The notes beneath the pieces were generated by a model. That model ran no database searches, was not told the origin of the DNA, and saw only the letters and a list, made by a program, of their open reading frames with translations. Below, one piece after another: positions 2,310-38,799 of a stretch of DNA of 64,000 nt. The translations under genes and the position numbers were made by a program. Position 1 is the first letter of the stretch. The number at the start of each line of letters is the position of its first letter. This stretch comes from an uncultured Candidatus Bathyarchaeia archaeon (GTDB taxonomy: Archaea; Thermoproteota; CALKCG01; B24): NCBI GenBank assembly GCA_964463005.1, contig CAYWZZ010000002.1, positions 27,939 through 91,938 of the forward strand. The letters are read 5' to 3'.

Positions 2310-3695
2310 CTACTTTCCAAGGTTAAACTCTCTATGTATCGCTCTCACCGCTTTTTCACAGTCTACGTCTTTGACGACGAACGATATGTTTAACTCAGAT
2401 GAGCCTTGAGCTATCATTCTAATGTTAACCCCCTCACTTGCTACTGCTTTGAATATCCTAGCAGCCGTCCCAGGCTTCCCCCTCATTCCACTCCCAATAA
2501 CAGCTACAACGGCTATATCCGACTCGTAACTTATACTTCTCACCAAATCCGTACCGAGTAACGCCGTTTCAAGAAGGGAGACGGCTTTCATAAGCGTTCT
2601 ACTAGGGACGATGACTGATATATTACTTTCGCTCACGGTTTGAGCAATCATCATTATGTTTATGTTTGCTTTTCCAAGAACTTGGAATATTCTAGCAGCC
2701 GTCCCAGGCGTTCCAACCATGCCGAAGCCCTGAACATTTATTAAACCTACATCTCTGGCTACTGTAACAGCTTTAACCACGTCTTTACTTTCCATCGGCT
2801 TTGACGTAATTAAAGTGCCTCGATTATCCGGGTTAAACGTGTTTCTAATTCTAACCGGTATGTTATCTACCATAGCTGGTTCTAAAGCCCTCGGATGCAT
2901 CCTTTTAACACCTAAAATAGCCATTTCAACAGCTTCTTCAAAACTAAGCTCTTCTATAGTCTTAGCAGATGGCTCTAATTTTGGATCCGCCGTCATGAGA
3001 CCATCCACATCCGTCCAAAGCCAGACTTCATCGGCTTTTAAAGCGGCAGCTATTAAAGTAGCAGTATAATCTGAGCCGCCTCTCCCCAGTGTTGTAATAG
3101 AGCCGTCTTGACTTTTAGCTATATAGCCTGTAACAATTGGGACGATGCCTTTATCGATCATCGGTTGAAGTTTACTCCTTAACTGGAGTTTACTCAATTC
3201 GATGAAAGGTCTAGCTTCTCCATAATTTGAGTCCGTAACTATCCCAGCATCCCAACCAGTTAGCCATTCGGCTTTAACGCCGATGCTGTTTAAACAACCC
3301 CATAGTATAGGCGTGGACATAAGCTCTCCGAACGATGCTACATAATCTCTAACCCTTGGCGTAACTTCTTTAACGTAATATATTCCATGTAGGAGCTTCT
3401 CAAGTTCACTCTTGAGGGAGTTTAAGATTTTAAGTACGCTGTCTAAATGCTCGCGACTCTCAATAGAGGCTTTAGCCATAGCAATATGTCTTTCAAACAG
3501 TGCGTTTACTCCATAGGCTATATACGTTTCGTCTTTAAGAGATTCCTCACACATGGTTAAAAGCTCATCTGTAACGCCTGATAAGGCTGAAGATACAACG
3601 ACTACCTTATACCCTCTTTGAACGTATTTACGGATTAAGTCTGCTACATGTTTAACGCTAGCGGCGTCTTCTAAGGAGGCCCCTCCAAACTTCAT
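2310..3695 (-). CDS. lysC: aspartate kinase
   Basis: KFGGASL start, VVVSSA motif, and two C-terminal ACT-like repeats. It is adjacent to hom, thrC and thrB. Confidence 0.85.
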   Translation of the reverse strand: MKFGGASLEDAASVKHVADLIRKYVQRGYKVVVVSSALSGVTDELLTMCEESLKDETYIAYGVNALFERHIAMAKASIESREHLDSVLKILNSLKSELEKLLHGIYYVKEVTPRVRDYVASFGELMSTPILWGCLNSIGVKAEWLTGWDAGIVTDSNYGEARPFIELSKLQLRSKLQPMIDKGIVPIVTGYIAKSQDGSITTLGRGGSDYTATLIAAALKADEVWLWTDVDGLMTADPKLEPSAKTIEELSFEEAVEMAILGVKRMHPRALEPAMVDNIPVRIRNTFNPDNRGTLITSKPMESKDVVKAVTVARDVGLINVQGFGMVGTPGTAARIFQVLGKANINIMMIAQTVSESNISVIVPSRTLMKAVSLLETALLGTDLVRSISYESDIAVVAVIGSGMRGKPGTAARIFKAVASEGVNIRMIAQGSSELNISFVVKDVDCEKAVRAIHREFNLGK

Positions 3696-4744
3696 AACAA
3701 CTTTAAAGGCAATCCCCCCAAACTACCCATTAGAAATCTCTTGACGATTATTAAATCTCTTACTATTGCTATTGCTGTTTCAGCCCCTCCAGCACCTTTA
3801 CCCACAATGGTTTCTGATCCAAGTTTCTCCATGTGAAAGGTCACAGCATTTAAGGTTCCCCAGACGCATAAGGGATCTGTCAAATCAACCTCTCTAGGTT
3901 GAACTCTTAGTGAGTTGTCTTCTCCATCAATAACGCCTAGGAGTTTGATCGTTTTGCCAGATTTAGCGAGCTCTCTGAGTTGATCACGGGTTACCCCCCT
4001 TATACCTCTGACTTCAACATCTTTAAGCGTAACTTTCAAACCCATAACGTAGTTAGCTATTATCACGAGTTTGCATGCCGTATCGAACCCTTCCACATCC
4101 ATGAAGGGGTCTTTCTCGGCATAACCAAACTTTTGAGCCTCAGTTAACGCCTCATTAAAGTCTAATCCATCGGCATACATTCTAGTTAGAATATAGTTTG
4201 TCGTCCCGTTTAAAATACCCTCAACTTTCACAACATCGTCTCCAGACTGACACATCCTCCCAAAATCGAGAACGGGTGTACCTCCACCAACCGTCCCGCT
4301 GAATCTAAGGATGGCCCCATTTCTATCCGCTATCTCCATGAGAGCCGGTAAGGCTAATGCCAGAGGACCCTTATTTGTGGTTACGACGCTTTTACCCATG
4401 GATAACGCCTTCCTTATATGGCTTAACCCCGGTTCTCCATTAACTATATTCGTAGGCGTTGTTTCCACCAGAACGTCGTAATCGAAGTTTTCAAGTAGCT
4501 CTTCTAGAGGGGCCTTCACGGTTCTATCAGGTAGGGCTTTAGCTAAATATCCATAATTCATCTTAGCTTCTAAAGCCTCCTTAACGTCAACCCCTCTTTC
4601 ATCAACTAAAGCCCCCGAGCTGTCAGCGATTGCTATAACTCTAGGTTTAAGACCAAACTTTGAGACTAGCTTATCTCTCTCGTACAGTATTTTCTCAGCT
4701 AAGGCTCTACCGACTACGCCAAACCCTATCATAAAAATCCTCAT
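3692..4744 (-). CDS. hom: homoserine dehydrogenase
   Basis: N-terminal GFGVVGRALAE Rossmann motif. Overall match to homoserine dehydrogenase. Operon context. Confidence 0.8.
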   Translation of the reverse strand: MRIFMIGFGVVGRALAEKILYERDKLVSKFGLKPRVIAIADSSGALVDERGVDVKEALEAKMNYGYLAKALPDRTVKAPLEELLENFDYDVLVETTPTNIVNGEPGLSHIRKALSMGKSVVTTNKGPLALALPALMEIADRNGAILRFSGTVGGGTPVLDFGRMCQSGDDVVKVEGILNGTTNYILTRMYADGLDFNEALTEAQKFGYAEKDPFMDVEGFDTACKLVIIANYVMGLKVTLKDVEVRGIRGVTRDQLRELAKSGKTIKLLGVIDGEDNSLRVQPREVDLTDPLCVWGTLNAVTFHMEKLGSETIVGKGAGGAETAIAIVRDLIIVKRFLMGSLGGLPLKLL

Positions 4745-25590: not shown

Positions 25591-26355
25591 GTGTACGACG
25601 AATACTCGTATAGGATTTTGATAGCGTTAAGAGAAAAGAGTGTTGCTAGGTTTAAAGACCTCAAATCCATAGTAAGCAATTCTAGAATGCTTACAATAAA
25701 ATTGAAGAGGCTTAAAAGTTTAGAGCTTGTAGAAGTTAAGAATGGCTTTTACACTTTAACCTATAAAGGTCTCAAAGTGAGTAGAATACTTGAAGATTTA
25801 GATGAAGCTCTTCACCTCCATGAGCCGAAGGTAAAGAACTTAGAAAGAATCCCCCACTACCACTATACTCCTGTGGTAAAGAAGTATTGTGAACTATTAA
25901 TCGACACATTTGGAGAGAGGCTTGTGAGCATAATGCTCTTTGGCTCTATAGCTAGGGGGGATTGGAATTACGATAGCGATATAGATATACTCATAATCGC
26001 TAAAGGTTGGGAGGATAAGCCAGTTTGGTCTAGGATTAGAGAGGTTAGGAAGGTTAAGGAGAGGCTGGAGGTAAGTCCAGAATACTCAGAGGCTTTAAAG
26101 GCTGGCTACCATCCGATTATTCAAAACTATACACTGAGCGTTGAAGAGGCTAGGAAGTTTAATAGGATATACTTAGATGCCGTGATCGATGGTATTATCC
26201 TTTACGATAGAGACGAGTTTCTGAGTAGAATTCTCCAATCTGTGAGAAAGAGGTTGGAGGAGATGGGTTCGATTAGGATTACGTTTCCGAATAAAAGATT
26301 CTGCTGGGTTTTAAAGAGGGATTTTAAGGCTGGGGAGGTGATAGTACTTGGATAA
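25591..26355 (+). CDS. winged-HTH fused to minimal nucleotidyltransferase (MNT) domain
   Basis: GS-x9-13-DxD motif (FGSIARGDWNYDSDIDILII). N-terminal wHTH of about 90 aa. Confidence 0.75.
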   Translation: MYDEYSYRILIALREKSVARFKDLKSIVSNSRMLTIKLKRLKSLELVEVKNGFYTLTYKGLKVSRILEDLDEALHLHEPKVKNLERIPHYHYTPVVKKYCELLIDTFGERLVSIMLFGSIARGDWNYDSDIDILIIAKGWEDKPVWSRIREVRKVKERLEVSPEYSEALKAGYHPIIQNYTLSVEEARKFNRIYLDAVIDGIILYDRDEFLSRILQSVRKRLEEMGSIRITFPNKRFCWVLKRDFKAGEVIVLG

Positions 26356-26794
26356 CGTTACAAACGTAGACCTTGCGAAGTTGGCATTGAAGAGAAGTGG
26401 AAGATGGTTGAAGAGCGCATTGAGGGCTTTAGAGGATGAAAGATGGGATGATGTAGTCTATTCTTCGCAAATGGCTGTTGAACAGGCATCAAAAGCAGTT
26501 TTAATAGCGCTTGGAATAGAGTATCCTAAGGAGCATGATGTAAGCGTAGTCTTCAAGCAAATACAGGAGATAGAGAATATTCCAGCATGGTTTGTATCGA
26601 TGATTCCCGAGCTCGCTAATATCATTTCTGAGTTGGCCGAATTGAGGGGATTAGCCGGATACGGCTATGAGAAAGGTTTAGATGCAGATTACTTCAAAGA
26701 ATACGCACCTGAGGCGTACGAAATGGCCAGAAAACACCATGAAGCCTGCGCCAAGCTACTCTACCAGCTCTACGATATAGTTACTGAAAATTAA
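26348..26794 (+). CDS. HEPN domain protein (partner of MNT)
   Basis: 148-aa all-helical protein. It overlaps the MNT gene by 8 nt, which is the classic HEPN/MNT operon arrangement. Confidence 0.65.
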   Translation: MDNVTNVDLAKLALKRSGRWLKSALRALEDERWDDVVYSSQMAVEQASKAVLIALGIEYPKEHDVSVVFKQIQEIENIPAWFVSMIPELANIISELAELRGLAGYGYEKGLDADYFKEYAPEAYEMARKHHEACAKLLYQLYDIVTEN

Positions 26795-31316: not shown

Positions 31317-32330
31317 CTATGTTCGTCTATGCATCACTAAAAGCGATTTCTGACTGCTGGATTGAGCTAATGTACATAATGGATCTGGACTACGGAATGA
31401 ATTTGTAATGGCGTATACCCTAGCTTTACATCCCCCTCTGCATACCACGTTATACTTGCAATTTCTACACGCCTCAGGTATTGTTGAGAGCACATTCTTA
31501 ACTAATGGGCTCGCCAAATACTCCTTCCAAGCTTTAGAGATGCCAATCTTGACGTCTGTAACCTTTATCCTTAGAGAGTCGCAGAGCGGTATTGATCCGT
31601 CTGGGAGGATATCCCAAGCCCTATAGATCGGGCAATCGTTGACGTGGAAGTACTTCGTAGATTCTACTGAATGAAGGAATGGAGCGCACCAAATTGTCGC
31701 CTCAAAACCTAAGGAGTTTGCAGTATCTCTTAGGACTGTAACGCTGTTGAGAAGCTCTGAAGGATTGATGCTTAGTTGATGATTGTATTTAGCTCTTCCA
31801 ATAGGTATTACGGGTATGAAAGCCGCGTATGAAGCCTCGAGGTCTCTTGAAAGTCTAAGTATGTCCGTCAATGCGTGCAGATTTATTCCCGTGATTGTTG
31901 TAACGGTCGCAAACTTCAATCCGAATTCTCTAACCAATTTAAGACCATTCATTAGAGAATTCCAGCTTCCTAAACCCCTCAGTTTTTCATGAAGCTCTCT
32001 AGATGGCCCATCTAAACTCGTAAATATTGAGACTTCAAAGTCAGTGAAGAACTTAGCATAATCGCTATCCAGCAGTGAAAGGTTTGATTGAACGGATACC
32101 TCTATACTATGACTTTTAAGCAACTTTATTACACTACGTAATGGCTTCCAAAGTAGTGGTTCTCCACCAGTTATATCCACTGGCGTTGAAAAATTCGCTA
32201 AGTCTTCTGCAATCTTTAGAGCATATCCTTCAGTTAGTTCTCCAGCTACATCAGAAGTGTAACAGTGACTACACTTTAAATTACAACGGGAAGTCACAAG
32301 CCATATCGTAAAGTCGGGTTTGATGGGCAT
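31317..32330 (-). CDS. radical SAM / SPASM-domain protein (orphan maturase-like)
   Basis: CNLKCSHC cluster motif. Cys-rich C-terminal SPASM-like region (CRNCKYNVVCRGGC). Start placed at the internal ATG 32330, which has GAGGTGGG upstream. Confidence 0.65.
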   Translation of the reverse strand: MPIKPDFTIWLVTSRCNLKCSHCYTSDVAGELTEGYALKIAEDLANFSTPVDITGGEPLLWKPLRSVIKLLKSHSIEVSVQSNLSLLDSDYAKFFTDFEVSIFTSLDGPSRELHEKLRGLGSWNSLMNGLKLVREFGLKFATVTTITGINLHALTDILRLSRDLEASYAAFIPVIPIGRAKYNHQLSINPSELLNSVTVLRDTANSLGFEATIWCAPFLHSVESTKYFHVNDCPIYRAWDILPDGSIPLCDSLRIKVTDVKIGISKAWKEYLASPLVKNVLSTIPEACRNCKYNVVCRGGCKARVYAITNSFRSPDPLCTLAQSSSQKSLLVMHRRT

Positions 32331-32480
32331 TTTAGCCCACCTCACAAAACTAAAATGATACGTGAAGCTTTTAGAATTCGGCAAAAAAGAGAAAAATTTA
32401 AAACTCAGTAAAAAACTTTACCTAGAAACTCTTCGGGAGCTTTAAAAGTATGAGTGTGTCTCAGACGGACGCTGAGGTGT

Positions 32481-34280
32481 TCACTCTTCTTTAGAGGGAA
32501 TATAGTAGTATTCTCCTATAGACTTTTGATACCTATCAAGCCTAGACCCGTACTTGTTGACTCTAGGTCTACCTGTATCTGGGTCTCTTCTAAAAGTCAC
32601 TTCTAGCTGAGATAGAAAACTGTTCATTCCATCTCTTAGAGACATAGGTGTGGATGCGAACCCCTCTACGCCAGGCTTACCTGTGAATACTATAAGCTTG
32701 TCAGCTACGAAGTCTGCTACAGATAGATCGTGTTCTACTATGAACGCTGCTTTCCTAAGGTTCTCCACGATCCTTCTTACAACTTTAGTCATCGTAAACC
32801 GTTCCTCGACGTCCAGATAAGCGCTAGGCTCATCTAGAAGATATAGATCCGCATCTCTAGAGAGACATAGGGCTACTGCGACTTTTTGAAGTTCACCACC
32901 ACTTAAATTTGATAAATCTCTTTCAAATAGCTTGTAAATCCCCATGGGTTGGAGAAGCTCCTCGTCTAGAAAGCTCGATCCAAACCTATCCCCTAAAACT
33001 TTTCTAAAGAGTTGTTCAACAGTACCACTGTAGTTTTCAGCCGATAGATATTGAGGTTTATAGCTTATCTTCAGATGTTCTGGCTGTGAACTACCCTTAT
33101 CCGGTTTAAGTATGCCCGCTAGTATTTTGATAAACGTCGTCTTACCTATACCGTTTGGACCGAGTATTCCCACAACTTCTCCAAAGTGAACTTCACCAGG
33201 TTCAACTTTTAAAGTAAATTCTTCAAGGTTTTTAATCAAACTACTCCATTTGACCATTATGGGTGCATCTGAAACATATCCATCTATTGGAGGCTTAACG
33301 TGGAATTTTATCTCACTCCCTCTAAACCGTATATTTTCATCTGGAATATAACCCTTGAGAAATATATTTATTCCATCTCTGACGGAATGGGGATGAGAAA
33401 CCACGCCGTAAACGCCAGGCTCACCATATATGACGCAAACTTGATCTGAAAGATAGTCTAAAACCGCTAAATCGTGTTCACTCACTATCACCGTCTTACC
33501 GGATTCGCACAGCCTTCTTATGAGCCTAGCTACGGAAAGTCTCTGCTTCACATCAAGGTAACTTGAAGGCTCGTCAAATATGTATACATCTACGTCCTTA
33601 AGACAACAAGCGGCTATAGCTACCCTCTGAAGTTCACCACCGCTTAAAACGGACAACTCCCTATCTAAGACTTCATTAAGCTCGAGTTCGTCGCATATAG
33701 ACTTCATACGTCCTCCCTCATCCACTCTGGATAGAAGGTCTCCCACAATACCTTTATGAGCCATAGGTATTTTATCGACGTACTGAGGCTTATACGCAAC
33801 TTTGAGGGAGCCCGACTTTAAACCTTTAAAGTATTCTTGAAGTGGAGAACCTCCATAATAGCTTATTATTTCATCCCAGTCAGGCGGGTCATTAAACCTA
33901 CCTAAGTTAGGTTTTATAACACCAGCTAATATCATCAGGGAGGTGGATTTGCCTACACCATTTTTACCTACGAGCCCTGTAACTCTACCGGTTAGTGGTG
34001 TTGGAAGCCTATAAAGCTTAAAAGCATTCACACCAAACCTATGTGAACAATCTTCTTCTAATTCCTCGGGAAGATTTACTATGGATAATGCTTTGAAAGG
34101 ACACTTCCTAACGCATAAACCGCATCCTACACACAGCTTCTCATTCACAATAGGATAGCCGCTTTCAGATATTTTAATAGCGTCCAATTCATTCCGTACA
34201 GGGGGGCAGAATCTCATACAGACTAAACCACAATCCTTAGGTTTACATTTATCTCTATCTAGGACTGCTACTCTAACCAT
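32481..34280 (-). CDS. abcE1: ABCE1 (RNase L inhibitor / ribosome recycling factor)
   Basis: N-terminal di-cluster Fe-S domain plus twin ABC cassettes. Confidence 0.9.
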   Translation of the reverse strand: MVRVAVLDRDKCKPKDCGLVCMRFCPPVRNELDAIKISESGYPIVNEKLCVGCGLCVRKCPFKALSIVNLPEELEEDCSHRFGVNAFKLYRLPTPLTGRVTGLVGKNGVGKSTSLMILAGVIKPNLGRFNDPPDWDEIISYYGGSPLQEYFKGLKSGSLKVAYKPQYVDKIPMAHKGIVGDLLSRVDEGGRMKSICDELELNEVLDRELSVLSGGELQRVAIAACCLKDVDVYIFDEPSSYLDVKQRLSVARLIRRLCESGKTVIVSEHDLAVLDYLSDQVCVIYGEPGVYGVVSHPHSVRDGINIFLKGYIPDENIRFRGSEIKFHVKPPIDGYVSDAPIMVKWSSLIKNLEEFTLKVEPGEVHFGEVVGILGPNGIGKTTFIKILAGILKPDKGSSQPEHLKISYKPQYLSAENYSGTVEQLFRKVLGDRFGSSFLDEELLQPMGIYKLFERDLSNLSGGELQKVAVALCLSRDADLYLLDEPSAYLDVEERFTMTKVVRRIVENLRKAAFIVEHDLSVADFVADKLIVFTGKPGVEGFASTPMSLRDGMNSFLSQLEVTFRRDPDTGRPRVNKYGSRLDRYQKSIGEYYYIPSKEE

Positions 34281-34379
34281 TAAATCACCTTGAGGGCCCG
34301 TAGGTAGTCTATTTTAAAGTTGAGAATTAAGCCTTTCATAAAATCTTGATAAAAATAGGGGAGCGTTAAATTTGAGGAG

Positions 34380-34559
34380 CTACCATTCCTCTTCCTCTTC
34401 TTCCCACTCTTCCTCTGGTTCTTCTTCCTCCCACTCCCACTCTTCCTCTTCCTCCCACTCCTCTTCTGGCTCCTCTTCCTCTTCTCCCCATTCCTCCTCT
34501 TCCGGTTCTTCCTCCGACTCCTCTTCTTCCCACTTCAAACGTTTCTTGGTCAAGAACAT
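34380..34559 (-). CDS. 59-aa Glu/Trp-rich acidic mini-protein (MFLTKKRLKW + (E3-6 W/P/S/G) repeats)
   Basis: ATG with GAAGGAG 6 nt upstream. The GAR codon periodicity favours the Glu frame. Same strand as, and 100 bp upstream of, ABCE1. Confidence 0.4.
   Translation of the reverse strand: MFLTKKRLKWEEEESEEEPEEEEWGEEEEEPEEEWEEEEEWEWEEEEPEEEWEEEEEEW
34383..34550. repeat. imperfect GAR/CTY triplet-repeat tract (low complexity)
   Basis: ctcttcctcttcttcccactc... repeated. It translates as E/W-rich on the minus strand, S/H-rich on the plus strand, and R/G-rich in the third frame. Confidence 0.8.
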
Positions 34560-34697
34560 TCACACTCCTTCTTTCTTCAAGAAGCTTGGAATGTGATAAA
34601 GACTTATTTAAACTTAATTGTTTAGGAAGACCTTAAACTGCATAAATTCCACTAGAAAGTTTATGAAAAATGTGAAAAGTGTATGGGTAGTTTTAAG

Positions 34698-35426
34698 CTA
34701 GAGTTCTATCTTAAGATCTTCGGAAGTTAAAGCGACAGACTGCCTCTTTTCAGTACGCTCAATCATGCCATCTCTAATCCAAGCAATACGGTCTGAAACG
34801 TCTATCATTTTTAAGTCGTGGGTAGCACATATGACCGTAGTATTCCTCTCAACTTTAAGCCTATATAGTAGGTTGACGATTGCAAAACCTGTGTTTAAAT
34901 CCAGGTTTCCAGTAGGTTCATCGGCCAGAACGATTGAAGGATCGTTCGCCAATGCTCTAGCAATTGCGACTCTCTGTTGCTGCCCACCCGATAGTTCAGT
35001 AGGTCTATGGTAGAGCCTATCTCCAAGACCAACAGTCTTCAAAAGTTCTTCAGCCTTCTTAACCCTCTCATCTCTCCTCTTACCAGTGAAAACCATAGGT
35101 AGGGCTACGTTATCCAACGCCGTTAGCACGGGTATCAGGTTGAACGTCTGAAAGATGTAGCCGATCTTATGAGCTCTAAGCCAAGCCTTCTCCTTCCTAC
35201 TCATCTTAGCTATTTCTATTCCATCGATTAATACGGATCCTCCTGAAGGGTCATCGAGCCCACCTATCATGTTGAAAAGTGTAGTTTTTCCACTTCCAGA
35301 TGGACCCATTACTGACAGATATTCACCTCTCTCAACCGTTAGATCTATTCCTCTTAGAGCGTGAATAACTTCACCTCTAAGAATATACTGCTTTTTAAGC
35401 CCCTTAGTTTCGACGACTATCGACAT
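34698..35426 (-). CDS. ABC transporter ATP-binding protein (LolD/MacB-like), no adjacent permease
   Basis: Walker A GPSGSGKTT, LSGGQQQRVAIARAL signature, Walker B. Confidence 0.8.
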   Translation of the reverse strand: MSIVVETKGLKKQYILRGEVIHALRGIDLTVERGEYLSVMGPSGSGKTTLFNMIGGLDDPSGGSVLIDGIEIAKMSRKEKAWLRAHKIGYIFQTFNLIPVLTALDNVALPMVFTGKRRDERVKKAEELLKTVGLGDRLYHRPTELSGGQQQRVAIARALANDPSIVLADEPTGNLDLNTGFAIVNLLYRLKVERNTTVICATHDLKMIDVSDRIAWIRDGMIERTEKRQSVALTSEDLKIEL

Positions 35427-37750: not shown

Positions 37751-38020
37751 ATGTTTAGGTATCCCATATTGGATGAAGTTGAACTAAAAATCCACTTAGA
37801 AGATCATTTTAAAGCAACGGTTTTCCTGAAGGCTTTAGAGCCAGATAATAAAGTTTTACCCGTAGGGCTCAAGATTAGAAGTGAGTTATCAAATTCAACG
37901 ATAATCATAAGGATTGAATCTAACGTTAAAATAGAAACTCTTCTCAACACGCTAGACGACTTATTAACATGTTTTTCGACTGCGGAAAAATGTCTCAGAG
38001 CTATTGAAGCTAAGGGTTAG
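37751..38020 (+). CDS. small protein, possibly KEOPS subunit Pcc1-like
   Basis: 89 aa. The pattern resembles Pcc1, but I could not verify the similarity. Confidence 0.3.
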   Translation: MFRYPILDEVELKIHLEDHFKATVFLKALEPDNKVLPVGLKIRSELSNSTIIIRIESNVKIETLLNTLDDLLTCFSTAEKCLRAIEAKG

Positions 38021-38184: not shown

Positions 38185-38799
38185 ATGTCAAAGATGCGGC
38201 GAGCTAAAGATAAGTGGAAAACCAAAATATGGTATAGAGTCTATTCACCCAAATACTTTGGCGAAGTTGAACTACCACCCATACCGGTTACAGAGGGACA
38301 AAGCCCAGTGGGTAGGACTGTAGAGGCGACACTCTTTGATTTAACTCAAGATCCGGCTCATCAAACAATTATAATGCGCTTTAAAGTGCATGAAACTAAA
38401 GAACTTAAAGCTGATACATTCTTCAGTGGACATGAATACGCTAGAGATTTTTTAAGAAGCCTCGTACGTAGAGGTAGTTCTAAGGTGGACGCTATAATAG
38501 ACGTTAAAACCAAAGATGGGGCACTTTTAAGAGTCTACCCGATAGCTTGCACCGCCCATAGAATAAACTCCTCTCAGAAGAAAACCATAAGAATGCTTAT
38601 GTTTAAAATAATTGAGGAAAAGGCCAAGAATTTGAATTTCGATCAGTTTGTTCAGGAAATGATTTTAGGTAAAATAGCTTCAGACATATATAATGAGGCT
38701 AAACGTATAACTCCATTGAGGCACGTAGGGTTTAAGAAGTCTAAAGTCTTATCCATAGAGGGAGTATTGAAAACAAAAACTCCCGAGGCAGCTAGTTAA
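38185..38799 (+). CDS. rps3ae: 30S ribosomal protein S3Ae (eS1)
   Basis: N-terminal KDKWKTKIWYRVYSP and overall conservation. Confidence 0.85.
   Translation: MSKMRRAKDKWKTKIWYRVYSPKYFGEVELPPIPVTEGQSPVGRTVEATLFDLTQDPAHQTIIMRFKVHETKELKADTFFSGHEYARDFLRSLVRRGSSKVDAIIDVKTKDGALLRVYPIACTAHRINSSQKKTIRMLMFKIIEEKAKNLNFDQFVQEMILGKIASDIYNEAKRITPLRHVGFKKSKVLSIEGVLKTKTPEAAS

Follow-up and report, generated by a model that had tools for sequence, protein, structure and literature searches.

Within a 64,000-nucleotide stretch of DNA from an uncultured Candidatus Bathyarchaeia archaeon (contig CAYWZZ010000002.1, positions 27,939 to 91,938 of the forward strand; hereafter, the window), a short open reading frame (ORF) rich in glutamate (E) and tryptophan (W) lies on the minus strand at 34380..34559. 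As the first-pass annotation of this DNA had described, the ORF is flanked on one side by the gene for a single-domain ATP-binding cassette (ABC) ATPase (34698-35426, minus strand) and on the other by the gene for ABCE1 (32481..34280, minus strand), the twin-ABC ATPase of ribosome recycling, which has a 4Fe-4S domain at its N-terminus. The product of the E/W ORF is MFLTKKRLKWEEEESEEEPEEEEWGEEEEEPEEEWEEEEEWEWEEEEPEEEWEEEEEEW, which is 59 amino acids long when read from an ATG at 34559, and the last codons are TGG TAG, with the TAG stop at 34382-34380. The frame, its ATG, and its terminal tryptophan were thus all found as previously reported, whereas the residue counts given at that time (about 40 Glu and 8 Trp) have to be corrected to 38 Glu and 7 Trp; the peptide also has 3 Pro and 3 Lys. 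A short basic N-terminus is followed by runs of three to six glutamates, which are split by single tryptophans (or by P, S, or G). The underlying DNA consists of at least 80% purine, a level that no other tract in the 64-kb window reaches. AlphaFold2, given the single sequence as input, modeled the window peptide as one long helix spanning residues 17-58 (mean predicted local distance difference test score of 72), which, for the peptide alone, is weak evidence.

The ABCE1 gene begins 99 nt 3' of this microgene and was identified by Pfam matches (ABC_tran twice, Fer4, and Fer4_RLI), by matches to ABCE1 structures in the Protein Data Bank (PDB) (E value of 1e-213), and by synteny; by its Pfam domain match, the protein carries two 4Fe-4S clusters. 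The two genes share a reading frame in the window, with starts 279 nt apart and two stops between them. This is probably coincidental because offsets of 0, 1, and 2 all occur elsewhere. A Shine-Dalgarno (SD)-like GAAGGAG lies at 34565..34571 on the minus strand, with 5 nt separating its GGAG end from the ATG and 11 nt separating it from an alternative TTG start, in line with the strong SD claimed for this ORF. The proposed ATG start itself held up in part: an ATG exists at 34557-34559, but it is specific to the window, being AGG in the nearest relative (L098; our loci are numbered L001 onward) and absent from L001 and L002. The TTG two codons 3' of it (34551..34553, minus strand) is kept in L098, L001, and L002 and is therefore the candidate start across the clade, predicting a 57-amino-acid product. 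Many ORFs of the window genome apparently use TTG or GTG starts. The other two frames of the tract also contain ORFs, as had been noted, namely, an R/G-rich ORF of 65 codons at 34366..34563 on the minus strand and an S/H-rich ORF of 74 codons at 34372..34596 on the plus strand.

To look for further E/W ORFs, we retrieved archaeal loci anchored on ABCE1, with one genome per species, and translated the regions upstream of ABCE1 in every retrieved locus. This yielded 47 archaeal loci, 41 of which had enough upstream sequence to be informative. Relatives of the window, ranked by identity to its ABCE1, were L098 (96%), L001 (94%), L002 (89%), and L004 ("Bathyarchaeota B24"; 78%). An E/W mini-ORF was present upstream of ABCE1, on the same strand and separated from it by 57-276 nt, in 19 of the 41 informative species loci. 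The carriers belong to the Bathyarchaeia (L001, L002, L004, L007, L008, L010, L014, and L046, the last of these from Hecatellales) and to Thermoprotei of the Desulfurococcales/Ignisphaera type (L018, L024, L026, L028, L029, L031, L034, L035, L036, L044, and L045), among them Zestosphaera tikiterensis (L024) and Ignisphaera aggregans (L035, a metagenome-assembled genome). A representative peptide from the Thermoprotei is MFEEEWWEEEEEEWWEEEEEEWEEEEW, followed directly by the stop codon. In L033, the copy lies 3.2 kb distant from ABCE1. No E/W ORF occupied the position before ABCE1 in the retrieved loci of Asgard archaea, Nitrososphaeria, Methanomethylicia, Culexarchaeia, or Baldrarchaeia. The window copy is an expanded Bathyarchaeia member of this family, with seven tryptophans, proline interruptions, and a basic N-terminus; the family as a whole ranges from 19 to 59 amino acids.

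Comparison of these copies at the codon level identifies the E/W frame as the coding one. The terminal tryptophan directly before the stop is found in 20 of the 21 ABCE1-anchored copies, the exception being L024. The L024 copy (positions 3584-3724; Zestosphaera tikiterensis NZ3) ends in WEEEEE before its stop, which may reflect genuine variation, the loss of 3 nt, or a mistake in the assembly. When seven Desulfurococcales-type copies were aligned, every gap measured 3 or 15 nt, and 207 of 225 pairwise differences fell at codon position 3, the rest being an artifact of the alignment end of L026. L029, L031, and L036 encode one and the same peptide even though they show 5-12 GAA/GAG differences, close to saturation for sites that have two states. 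Identity among their ABCE1 proteins is only 84-87%, and among the 100 nt 3' of the microgene stop it is 65-71%. In the clade of the window, gap runs are likewise all multiples of three (3, 6, 21, 30, and 42 nt), and codon position 3 accounts for 124 of 202 pairwise differences; the copy on the 141-kb metagenome contig L098 differs from that of the window by one in-frame 6-nt indel and by mostly synonymous changes. Thus, drift of the repeat through indels of other lengths, which the first-pass annotation had named as evidence against its own proposal, was not seen in relatives, where all indel lengths are divisible by three. Neither alternative frame has a consistent start or end across relatives, so that in the comparison between frames it is the E/W frame that is conserved.

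Collectively, the kept frame, in-frame indels, third-position changes, and terminal tryptophan argue strongly for an unlisted mini-protein gene, as had been proposed, and we consider it very likely that the ORF is a real protein-coding gene rather than a frame left open by chance within a purine tract. The substitution patterns indicate that the reading frame, the tryptophan positions, and the terminal tryptophan are under strong purifying selection in both the Bathyarchaeia and the Desulfurococcales-type Thermoprotei. Selection on the amino acid sequence implies that the peptide itself matters, whether released or nascent, rather than the RNA or the DNA. Because GAA and GAG are freely exchanged, GGAGG-like strings do not keep their positions from copy to copy, which argues against an "SD sponge" acting at the RNA level.

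The family extends beyond the loci retrieved through ABCE1. A scan of metagenomes with the DNA pattern TGG(GAR)4-N0-15-TGG(GAR)3-N0-9-TGG-TRR, which makes no use of ABCE1, recovered at least 120 loci; the same pattern matched once in the window versus zero times in 100 shuffles of the window and had no match in 2.9 million viral contigs. The counts that follow are taken among the 120 matches listed, whose loci are phylogenetically non-independent. Between 114 and 117 of these matches are true E/W ORFs, and they encode 94 distinct peptides of 19-54 amino acids with 67% Glu, 17% Trp, and 3-7 tryptophans each. The modal spacing from one tryptophan to the next is 5. Starts are ATG (92 copies), TTG (16 copies), and GTG (5 copies), and all three stops are used. 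The peptides end in E-E-W in 89 of 94 cases, a terminus that the search pattern partly imposes. In 67 of the 105 informative loci, ABCE1 starts 4-592 nt downstream on the same strand, mostly at 50-135 nt. A further five loci have ABCE1 elsewhere on the same strand and three are divergent from it, with ABCE1 within a few kilobases in all eight, and 30 of the 105 have no ABCE1 within reach. Three loci have another gene between the E/W ORF and ABCE1. The microgene is therefore physically linked to ABCE1, and the peptide is conserved equally well at loci that have a convergent, a divergent, or an unrelated gene next to it.

A second recurrent neighbor is Cgi121, a subunit of KEOPS. A bona fide Cgi121 gene lies just 5' of the microgene in L007, L008, L018, L024, L028, and L035. 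In addition, a convergent ORF of about 162 codons ends 2-14 nt past the E/W stop in L033 and in 11 loci without ABCE1 among the matches listed; this ORF is probably a divergent Cgi121 (hhalign probability of 54%, E value of 1.3e-4), and it has no Pfam match. The recurrence of Cgi121 beside the microgene suggests an ancestral cluster that looks like Cgi121, E/W gene, (zinc-ribbon gene), and ABCE1, and in Thermoproteota the primary genetic linkage of the family is to ABCE1, with Cgi121 second. A tblastn search of the window detected no Cgi121. An 89-codon ORF in the window (37751-38020, plus strand) matches Pcc1, another KEOPS subunit (E value of 3e-4; 21.6 bits against a cut-off of 20.9). It is 3.2 kb from the microgene and adjoins the gene for ribosomal protein eS1 at 38185-38799 (plus strand).

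The microgene is framed by sequences that resemble archaeal transcription signals. A TATA-like box, TTTAAATA, lies at 34605..34612 on the minus strand, 45 nt 5' of the ATG; as a putative promoter, it predicts a leader of about 20 nt that holds the SD. On the far side, a run of five T residues (34351..34355, minus strand) begins 24 nt 3' of the stop and is a probable oligo-T terminator. Both the TTTAAATA box and the T run are conserved in L001, L002, L004, and L098. A second TATA-like box, CTTTAAAATA (34310..34319, minus strand), is located 29 nt 5' of the ABCE1 start and is probably the promoter of ABCE1; comparable A/T boxes lie about 40 nt 5' of ABCE1 in family loci. The layout as a whole recurs in L001, L002, L004, and L098, and the Desulfurococcales set has it with other sequences, namely, cTTATATATT about 31 nt before the ATG and a small hairpin with five or six T residues after the stop. 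Among the matches listed from the pattern scan, TATA-like motifs peak 35-55 nt 5' of family starts, a T run of five or more occurs within 60 nt 3' of the stop in 76 of 112 copies versus 9.3% of random windows, and an SD 5-mer lies no more than 18 nt from the start in 59 of 111 copies versus a background of 5.8%. A scan with bacterial promoter and terminator models is uninformative for an archaeon. Taken together, the TATA-like box, the SD, and the T run after the stop appear to mark an independent transcription unit, with the roles of promoter, terminator, and SD assigned from the letters of the DNA.

The microprotein family has not been described previously, and annotation pipelines miss the gene. 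Many copies have fewer than 30 codons and so fall under the usual limits of gene callers. Four family members had no match to any Pfam family at E values of up to 10, including DSS1/SEM1; NCBIfam likewise held no family, its sole match being a meaningless one to HmcF (E value of 0.6). PDB sequences gave no match to the family peptides, a phmmer search of 1.8 billion representative proteins gave 0 matches, and a profile search of 5.8 billion protein clusters produced 8000 word candidates, none of which scored. Protein homology searches come back empty because the low complexity of these sequences defeats them. An exact look-up of ten family sequences in a collection of 15 billion proteins returned one call of 49 amino acids and no other, and this call carries no name. 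Open-access full text and bioRxiv contained no account of E/W-rich peptides or of a small ORF adjoining ABCE1 or Cgi121.

What might such a peptide do? The reading that we favor, tentatively and at somewhat less than an even chance for the whole of it, is that an independently transcribed microgene would encode a trans-acting acidic docking ligand in the ABCE1/recycling pathway. That the peptide acts in trans is the part we consider fairly likely: the promoter- and terminator-like signals of the microgene, the separate box of ABCE1, and the conservation of copies without a downstream ABCE1 all favor a trans product. That its partner is ABCE1 or the recycling machinery, a proposal drawn from synteny and from analogy, we regard as possible but somewhat short of probable. 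By analogy, long glutamate runs, interspersed tryptophans, and a free C-terminal tryptophan are the grammar of acidic docking tails. This grammar, together with the precedent of aP1 and eIF3j on ABCE1, is the reason why we propose a free, multivalent, "tail-only" docking ligand that would act in trans. The glutamate carboxylates would track a basic surface of the partner, and its hydrophobic pockets would be filled by the tryptophan side chains together with the terminal carboxylate. The most economical partner would be a peptide-binding patch on the first nucleotide-binding domain (NBD1) of ABCE1, where binding would modulate the ATPase cycle of ABCE1 or its access to the ribosome. In a less likely variant, the released peptide would imitate the stalk tail as a free product of its own gene and would gate the ATPase of ABCE1 away from the ribosome.

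The closest precedent is the tail of the ribosomal protein aP1 (P1/P2 in eukaryotes). The C-terminal 18-mer of aP1 binds a cavity on NBD1 of archaeal ABCE1 via L103, L106, and F107, so that the tail docks by its C-terminal hydrophobic/aromatic residues, and the tail is required for activation of the ABCE1 ATPase (PMC6125642). In eukaryotes, the N-terminus of eIF3j occupies the same "multivalent interaction patch" of ABCE1 (PMC7780240). Like the E/W peptide, the aP1 tail is acidic and flexible, with few hydrophobic/aromatic residues at its extreme C-terminus; it works in multiple copies and in the same pathway as ABCE1, and it also binds translational GTPases. The two differ in that aP1 is a ribosomal protein with a folded N-terminal domain for dimerization and aP0 binding, whereas the E/W ORF consists of the tract only, with or without a short leader, and is a free-standing gene product of 19-59 amino acids with 3-7 tryptophans, for which binding to ABCE1 is proposed by analogy. 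The aP1 tail ends in L-x-x-L-F-G and the E/W family in E-E-W, with no sequence similarity, so that they are analogous in kind only. In the window ABCE1, the cavity motif is identical to the aP1-binding one at P164, Y166, I170, A173, V219, A220, and A223 and carries the substitutions L169K and V174H (both positions now basic), A224C, and R227K.

Several observations weigh against this proposal. No clear ABCE1 residue signature at the aP1 cavity separates genomes with the microgene from genomes without it, a comparison confounded by phylogeny and by the duplication of motifs between NBD1 and NBD2. With tryptophan spacings anywhere between 4 and 8, the peptides lack a constant geometry for binding. 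About 30% of the pattern-found copies (among the matches listed) are not near ABCE1, Cgi121 is a recurrent neighbor, and Pcc1 is about 3 kb away in the window; these neighbors and the copies without ABCE1 mean that the partner could lie elsewhere in translation or in tRNA biology. Finally, translation reportedly aborts at N-terminal runs of D/E, both in bacteria and in eukaryotes (PMC9718836), and efficient synthesis of the E/W peptide is therefore not to be assumed.

This last point leads to the main competitor of a docking ligand, a cis-acting leader or sensor ORF in which translation of the hyperacidic nascent chain, and not the released peptide, would count. Completion of the ORF would decide whether the T run is read through or whether reinitiation occurs at ABCE1, which would feed back ribosome stability or recycling capacity onto ABCE1. 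Intrinsic ribosome destabilization (IRD) is documented in bacteria and eukaryotes, and N-terminal D/E runs are avoided by proteomes (PMC9718836, PMC12673854). The composition of the E/W ORF is the most IRD-prone imaginable, and its resemblance to IRD leaders such as MgtL in bacteria or the D/E-rich N-termini of yeast and human proteins extends to its being a very short ORF 5' of a gene, with an acidic run at its N-terminus in which glutamates start at residues 2-11. The position of the ORF 4-592 nt 5' of ABCE1 on the same strand in 67 of 105 loci (among the matches listed) would suit such a role, as would the GGTG-type SD motifs that often precede ABCE1 starts and are typical of internal cistrons. 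The T run would be suitably placed too, since 20-35 nt past the stop is the distance at which a terminating ribosome abuts a paused RNA polymerase, although the coupling is our inference. Amino-acid-level conservation is also expected of nascent-chain effectors, and a conserved, near-all-acidic ORF ahead of the ribosome-splitting factor would otherwise be a striking coincidence. Against this, 68% of copies are followed by a terminator-like T run, and a separate TATA-like box serves as the putative promoter of ABCE1. At least 12 loci have a convergent gene right after the ORF, 3 are divergent, 3 have an intervening gene, and 30 lack ABCE1, and the peptide is still conserved in all of these; more than 40 copies (among the matches listed) have no downstream ABCE1 to serve as the cis target. 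IRD itself needs neither conserved tryptophan positions nor a C-terminal tryptophan, both of which the E/W family has. Known arrest peptides have a rigid geometry, in contrast to the variable tryptophan spacing and the length range of 19-59 amino acids seen here. We therefore regard a cis sensor as unlikely. Its most specific form, a hard-to-translate probe whose completion or abortion, with the tryptophans as anchors in the tunnel, would set the level of ABCE1 in an archaeal nascent-chain feedback loop, is somewhat more doubtful still.

We consider it just as unlikely as a cis sensor that the peptide is a generic polyanion, that is, a cation or polyamine buffer, a nucleic acid mimic (both raised in the first-pass annotation's suggestion that it binds cations or mimics nucleic acid), or a DSS1/Sem1-like chaperone for basic proteins, with the adjacency to ABCE1 reflecting mere co-regulation with housekeeping translation genes. 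Family peptides have a net charge of about -20 to -35 and are predicted to be non-globular, the AlphaFold2 model is a single long helix, and the neighbors eS1, Pcc1, and Cgi121 are housekeeping genes. An acidic and aromatic composition resembles DSS1-type mimics. DSS1/Sem1 is a eukaryotic, acidic, disordered protein of about 70-90 amino acids that contains Trp/Phe, mimics DNA, and is a subunit of several complexes, and its resemblance is compositional: it shares with the E/W peptide its small size, disorder, hyperacidity, and Trp/Phe anchors for basic grooves. The E/W peptides differ in being shorter and archaeal, in consisting to 84% of two residue types, in ending in tryptophan, and in having no Pfam match at E values of up to 10. 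More generally, bulk charge needs no identical tryptophan placement, no obligatory C-terminal tryptophan, and no near-zero amino acid change where synonymous sites are saturated, and it leaves the repeated, specific adjacency to ABCE1 unexplained. An adaptor for Fe-S maturation, in which the C-terminal tryptophan would dock an Fe-S delivery protein while the acidic body would hold the basic Fe-S domain of apo-ABCE1, has in its favor the two 4Fe-4S clusters of ABCE1, the standing of ABCE1 as a client of Lto1, and the E-E-W-COOH terminus of the family. To our knowledge, Cia1 and Met18 are eukaryotic, and we know of no receptor complex for cytosolic iron-sulfur assembly (CIA) in archaea. Eukaryotic ABCE1/Rli1 requires the Yae1-Lto1 adaptor, in which the C-terminal tryptophan of Lto1 is essential (PMC4523923), and the CIA recognition signal is [LIM]-[DES]-[WF]-COO- (PMC10245660), with the aromatic side chain and the carboxylate dominating its binding to a pocket on Cia2 (bioRxiv 10.64898/2026.04.06.716496). 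The signal and Lto1 thus resemble the E/W peptide in using a terminal aromatic residue and free carboxylate as the docking determinant and, in the case of Lto1, in a functional tie to ABCE1 (PMC4523923, PMC10245660). The last two positions of the tripeptide (E-W) fit, but the antepenultimate residue is glutamate instead of the aliphatic L, I, or M. Moreover, Lto1 has a deca-GX3 domain, and the E/W peptide has no GX3 repeats; the internal tryptophan repeats are foreign to the signal and superfluous for it; and no Fe-S assembly gene lies near the microgene in the window or in the related loci examined. We therefore hold an Fe-S adaptor to be improbable.

Two further explanations have very little to recommend them. 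The tract might not be a gene at all but a chance ORF in polypurine DNA, a purine-rich RNA, an anti-SD sponge, a DNA element, or the host of another, real frame. Its low complexity, the empty homology searches, and the frequency of GGAGG-like strings in GAR repeats would fit, but the third-position substitutions, in-frame indels, conserved start, and conserved tryptophan before the stop, as well as the freely varying GAA/GAG choice (and hence GGAGG positions) and the inconsistent starts and ends of the alternative frames, make this very improbable. A structured or known RNA was rejected as well: the fold has a z-score of +0.41 against shuffles, and Rfam had no match in the window or related loci except for tRNAs. 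The least credible explanation, whose chance we put close to nil, is a precursor of a ribosomally synthesized and post-translationally modified peptide, carrying, for example, a Trp-Glu cross-link. A radical S-adenosylmethionine (SAM) protein with a Cys-rich C-terminal region is encoded on the same strand immediately 3' of ABCE1 (31317-32384, minus strand), and enzymes of this kind typically act on repetitive aromatic-X-X motifs. This candidate was rejected because a tblastn search of the 47 archaeal ABCE1 loci found the radical SAM gene, besides the window, in L001 and L002 only; L004 and every carrier more distant than it lack the gene, which is therefore not part of the conserved E/W-ABCE1 module.

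Other genes recur around ABCE1 in these loci. The ABC ATPase at 34698-35426 is LolD/MacB-like, with a single NBD and no adjoining permease gene. Copies that are 60-70% identical lie 1.5-2 kb 5' of ABCE1 in L013, L015, L017, L037, and L038, and this synteny spans loci from Methanomethylicia, Culexarchaeia, Nitrososphaerota, and Thermoprotei. Directly 5' of ABCE1 where the E/W gene is absent lies a gene for a protein of about 95 amino acids that combines a zinc ribbon of the RPB9-N type (PF02150) with an acidic/aromatic tail at the C-terminus (L013 3666-3956, L032 2621-2908, L006 183-470, L015 3541-3852, and L037 3651-3941). Further copies are found at L085 1405-1701 and in the spacers of L054, L066, and L069, some of them between the E/W gene and ABCE1, and the zinc-ribbon protein looks like a second small conserved neighbor of ABCE1. 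An Asparaginase_2 (Ntn-hydrolase) gene is located 5' of the E/W gene in L058, L083, L102, L124, L060, and L084 and 5' of ABCE1 in L009, L019, and L020, a further sign of a conserved but shuffled cluster.

In Desulfurococcales-type loci, a probable C/D-box small RNA (sRNA) of about 54 nt lies between the microgene and ABCE1 on the strand opposite ABCE1. It comprises a C box (RATGATGA), a conserved guide of 11-12 nt (GTGGTGACGGC), a D'-like box, a variable second guide, and a D box (CTGA). The sites are at about 3894-3947 in both L029 and L045, 3891-3945 in L031, 274-326 in L044, and 3828-3877 in L024, and the sRNA also occurs in L016, L056, L085, L091, L128, L131, L139, and L143. The candidate has no Rfam match and is absent from the window. 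Elsewhere in the window, at 25591-26794 (plus strand), the genes for a nucleotidyltransferase (NTP_transf_2) and a HEPN-domain protein overlap, as is typical of toxin-antitoxin-like pairs of the MNT-HEPN type.

All archaea and eukaryotes possess ABCE1 and depend on it, and we know of no dedicated small partner or cis-regulator of it in archaea. The E/W family, with products of 19-59 amino acids built from essentially two residue types, is more conserved between genomes than ABCE1 itself, yet it is invisible to gene callers and to composition-filtered homology searches. Under either a trans or a cis reading, synteny combined with codon-position analysis recovers conserved microgenes where profile searches fail, and cultured carriers of this one exist, for example, Ignisphaera aggregans and Zestosphaera tikiterensis. 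Were the ORF a cis sensor, it would extend nascent-chain ribosome destabilization, so far described in bacteria and eukaryotes, to archaeal gene regulation, which would be notable since proteomes reportedly avoid N-terminal acidic runs. Were it a trans ligand, as we tentatively favor, it would be the first example of a free, "tail-only" peptide that regulates a ribosome-recycling factor, and a synthetic peptide would be a simple reagent for probing the multivalent patch of ABCE1. The tie to ABCE1 across the Bathyarchaeia and the Thermoprotei points to an unrecognized small partner or regulator in protein synthesis.

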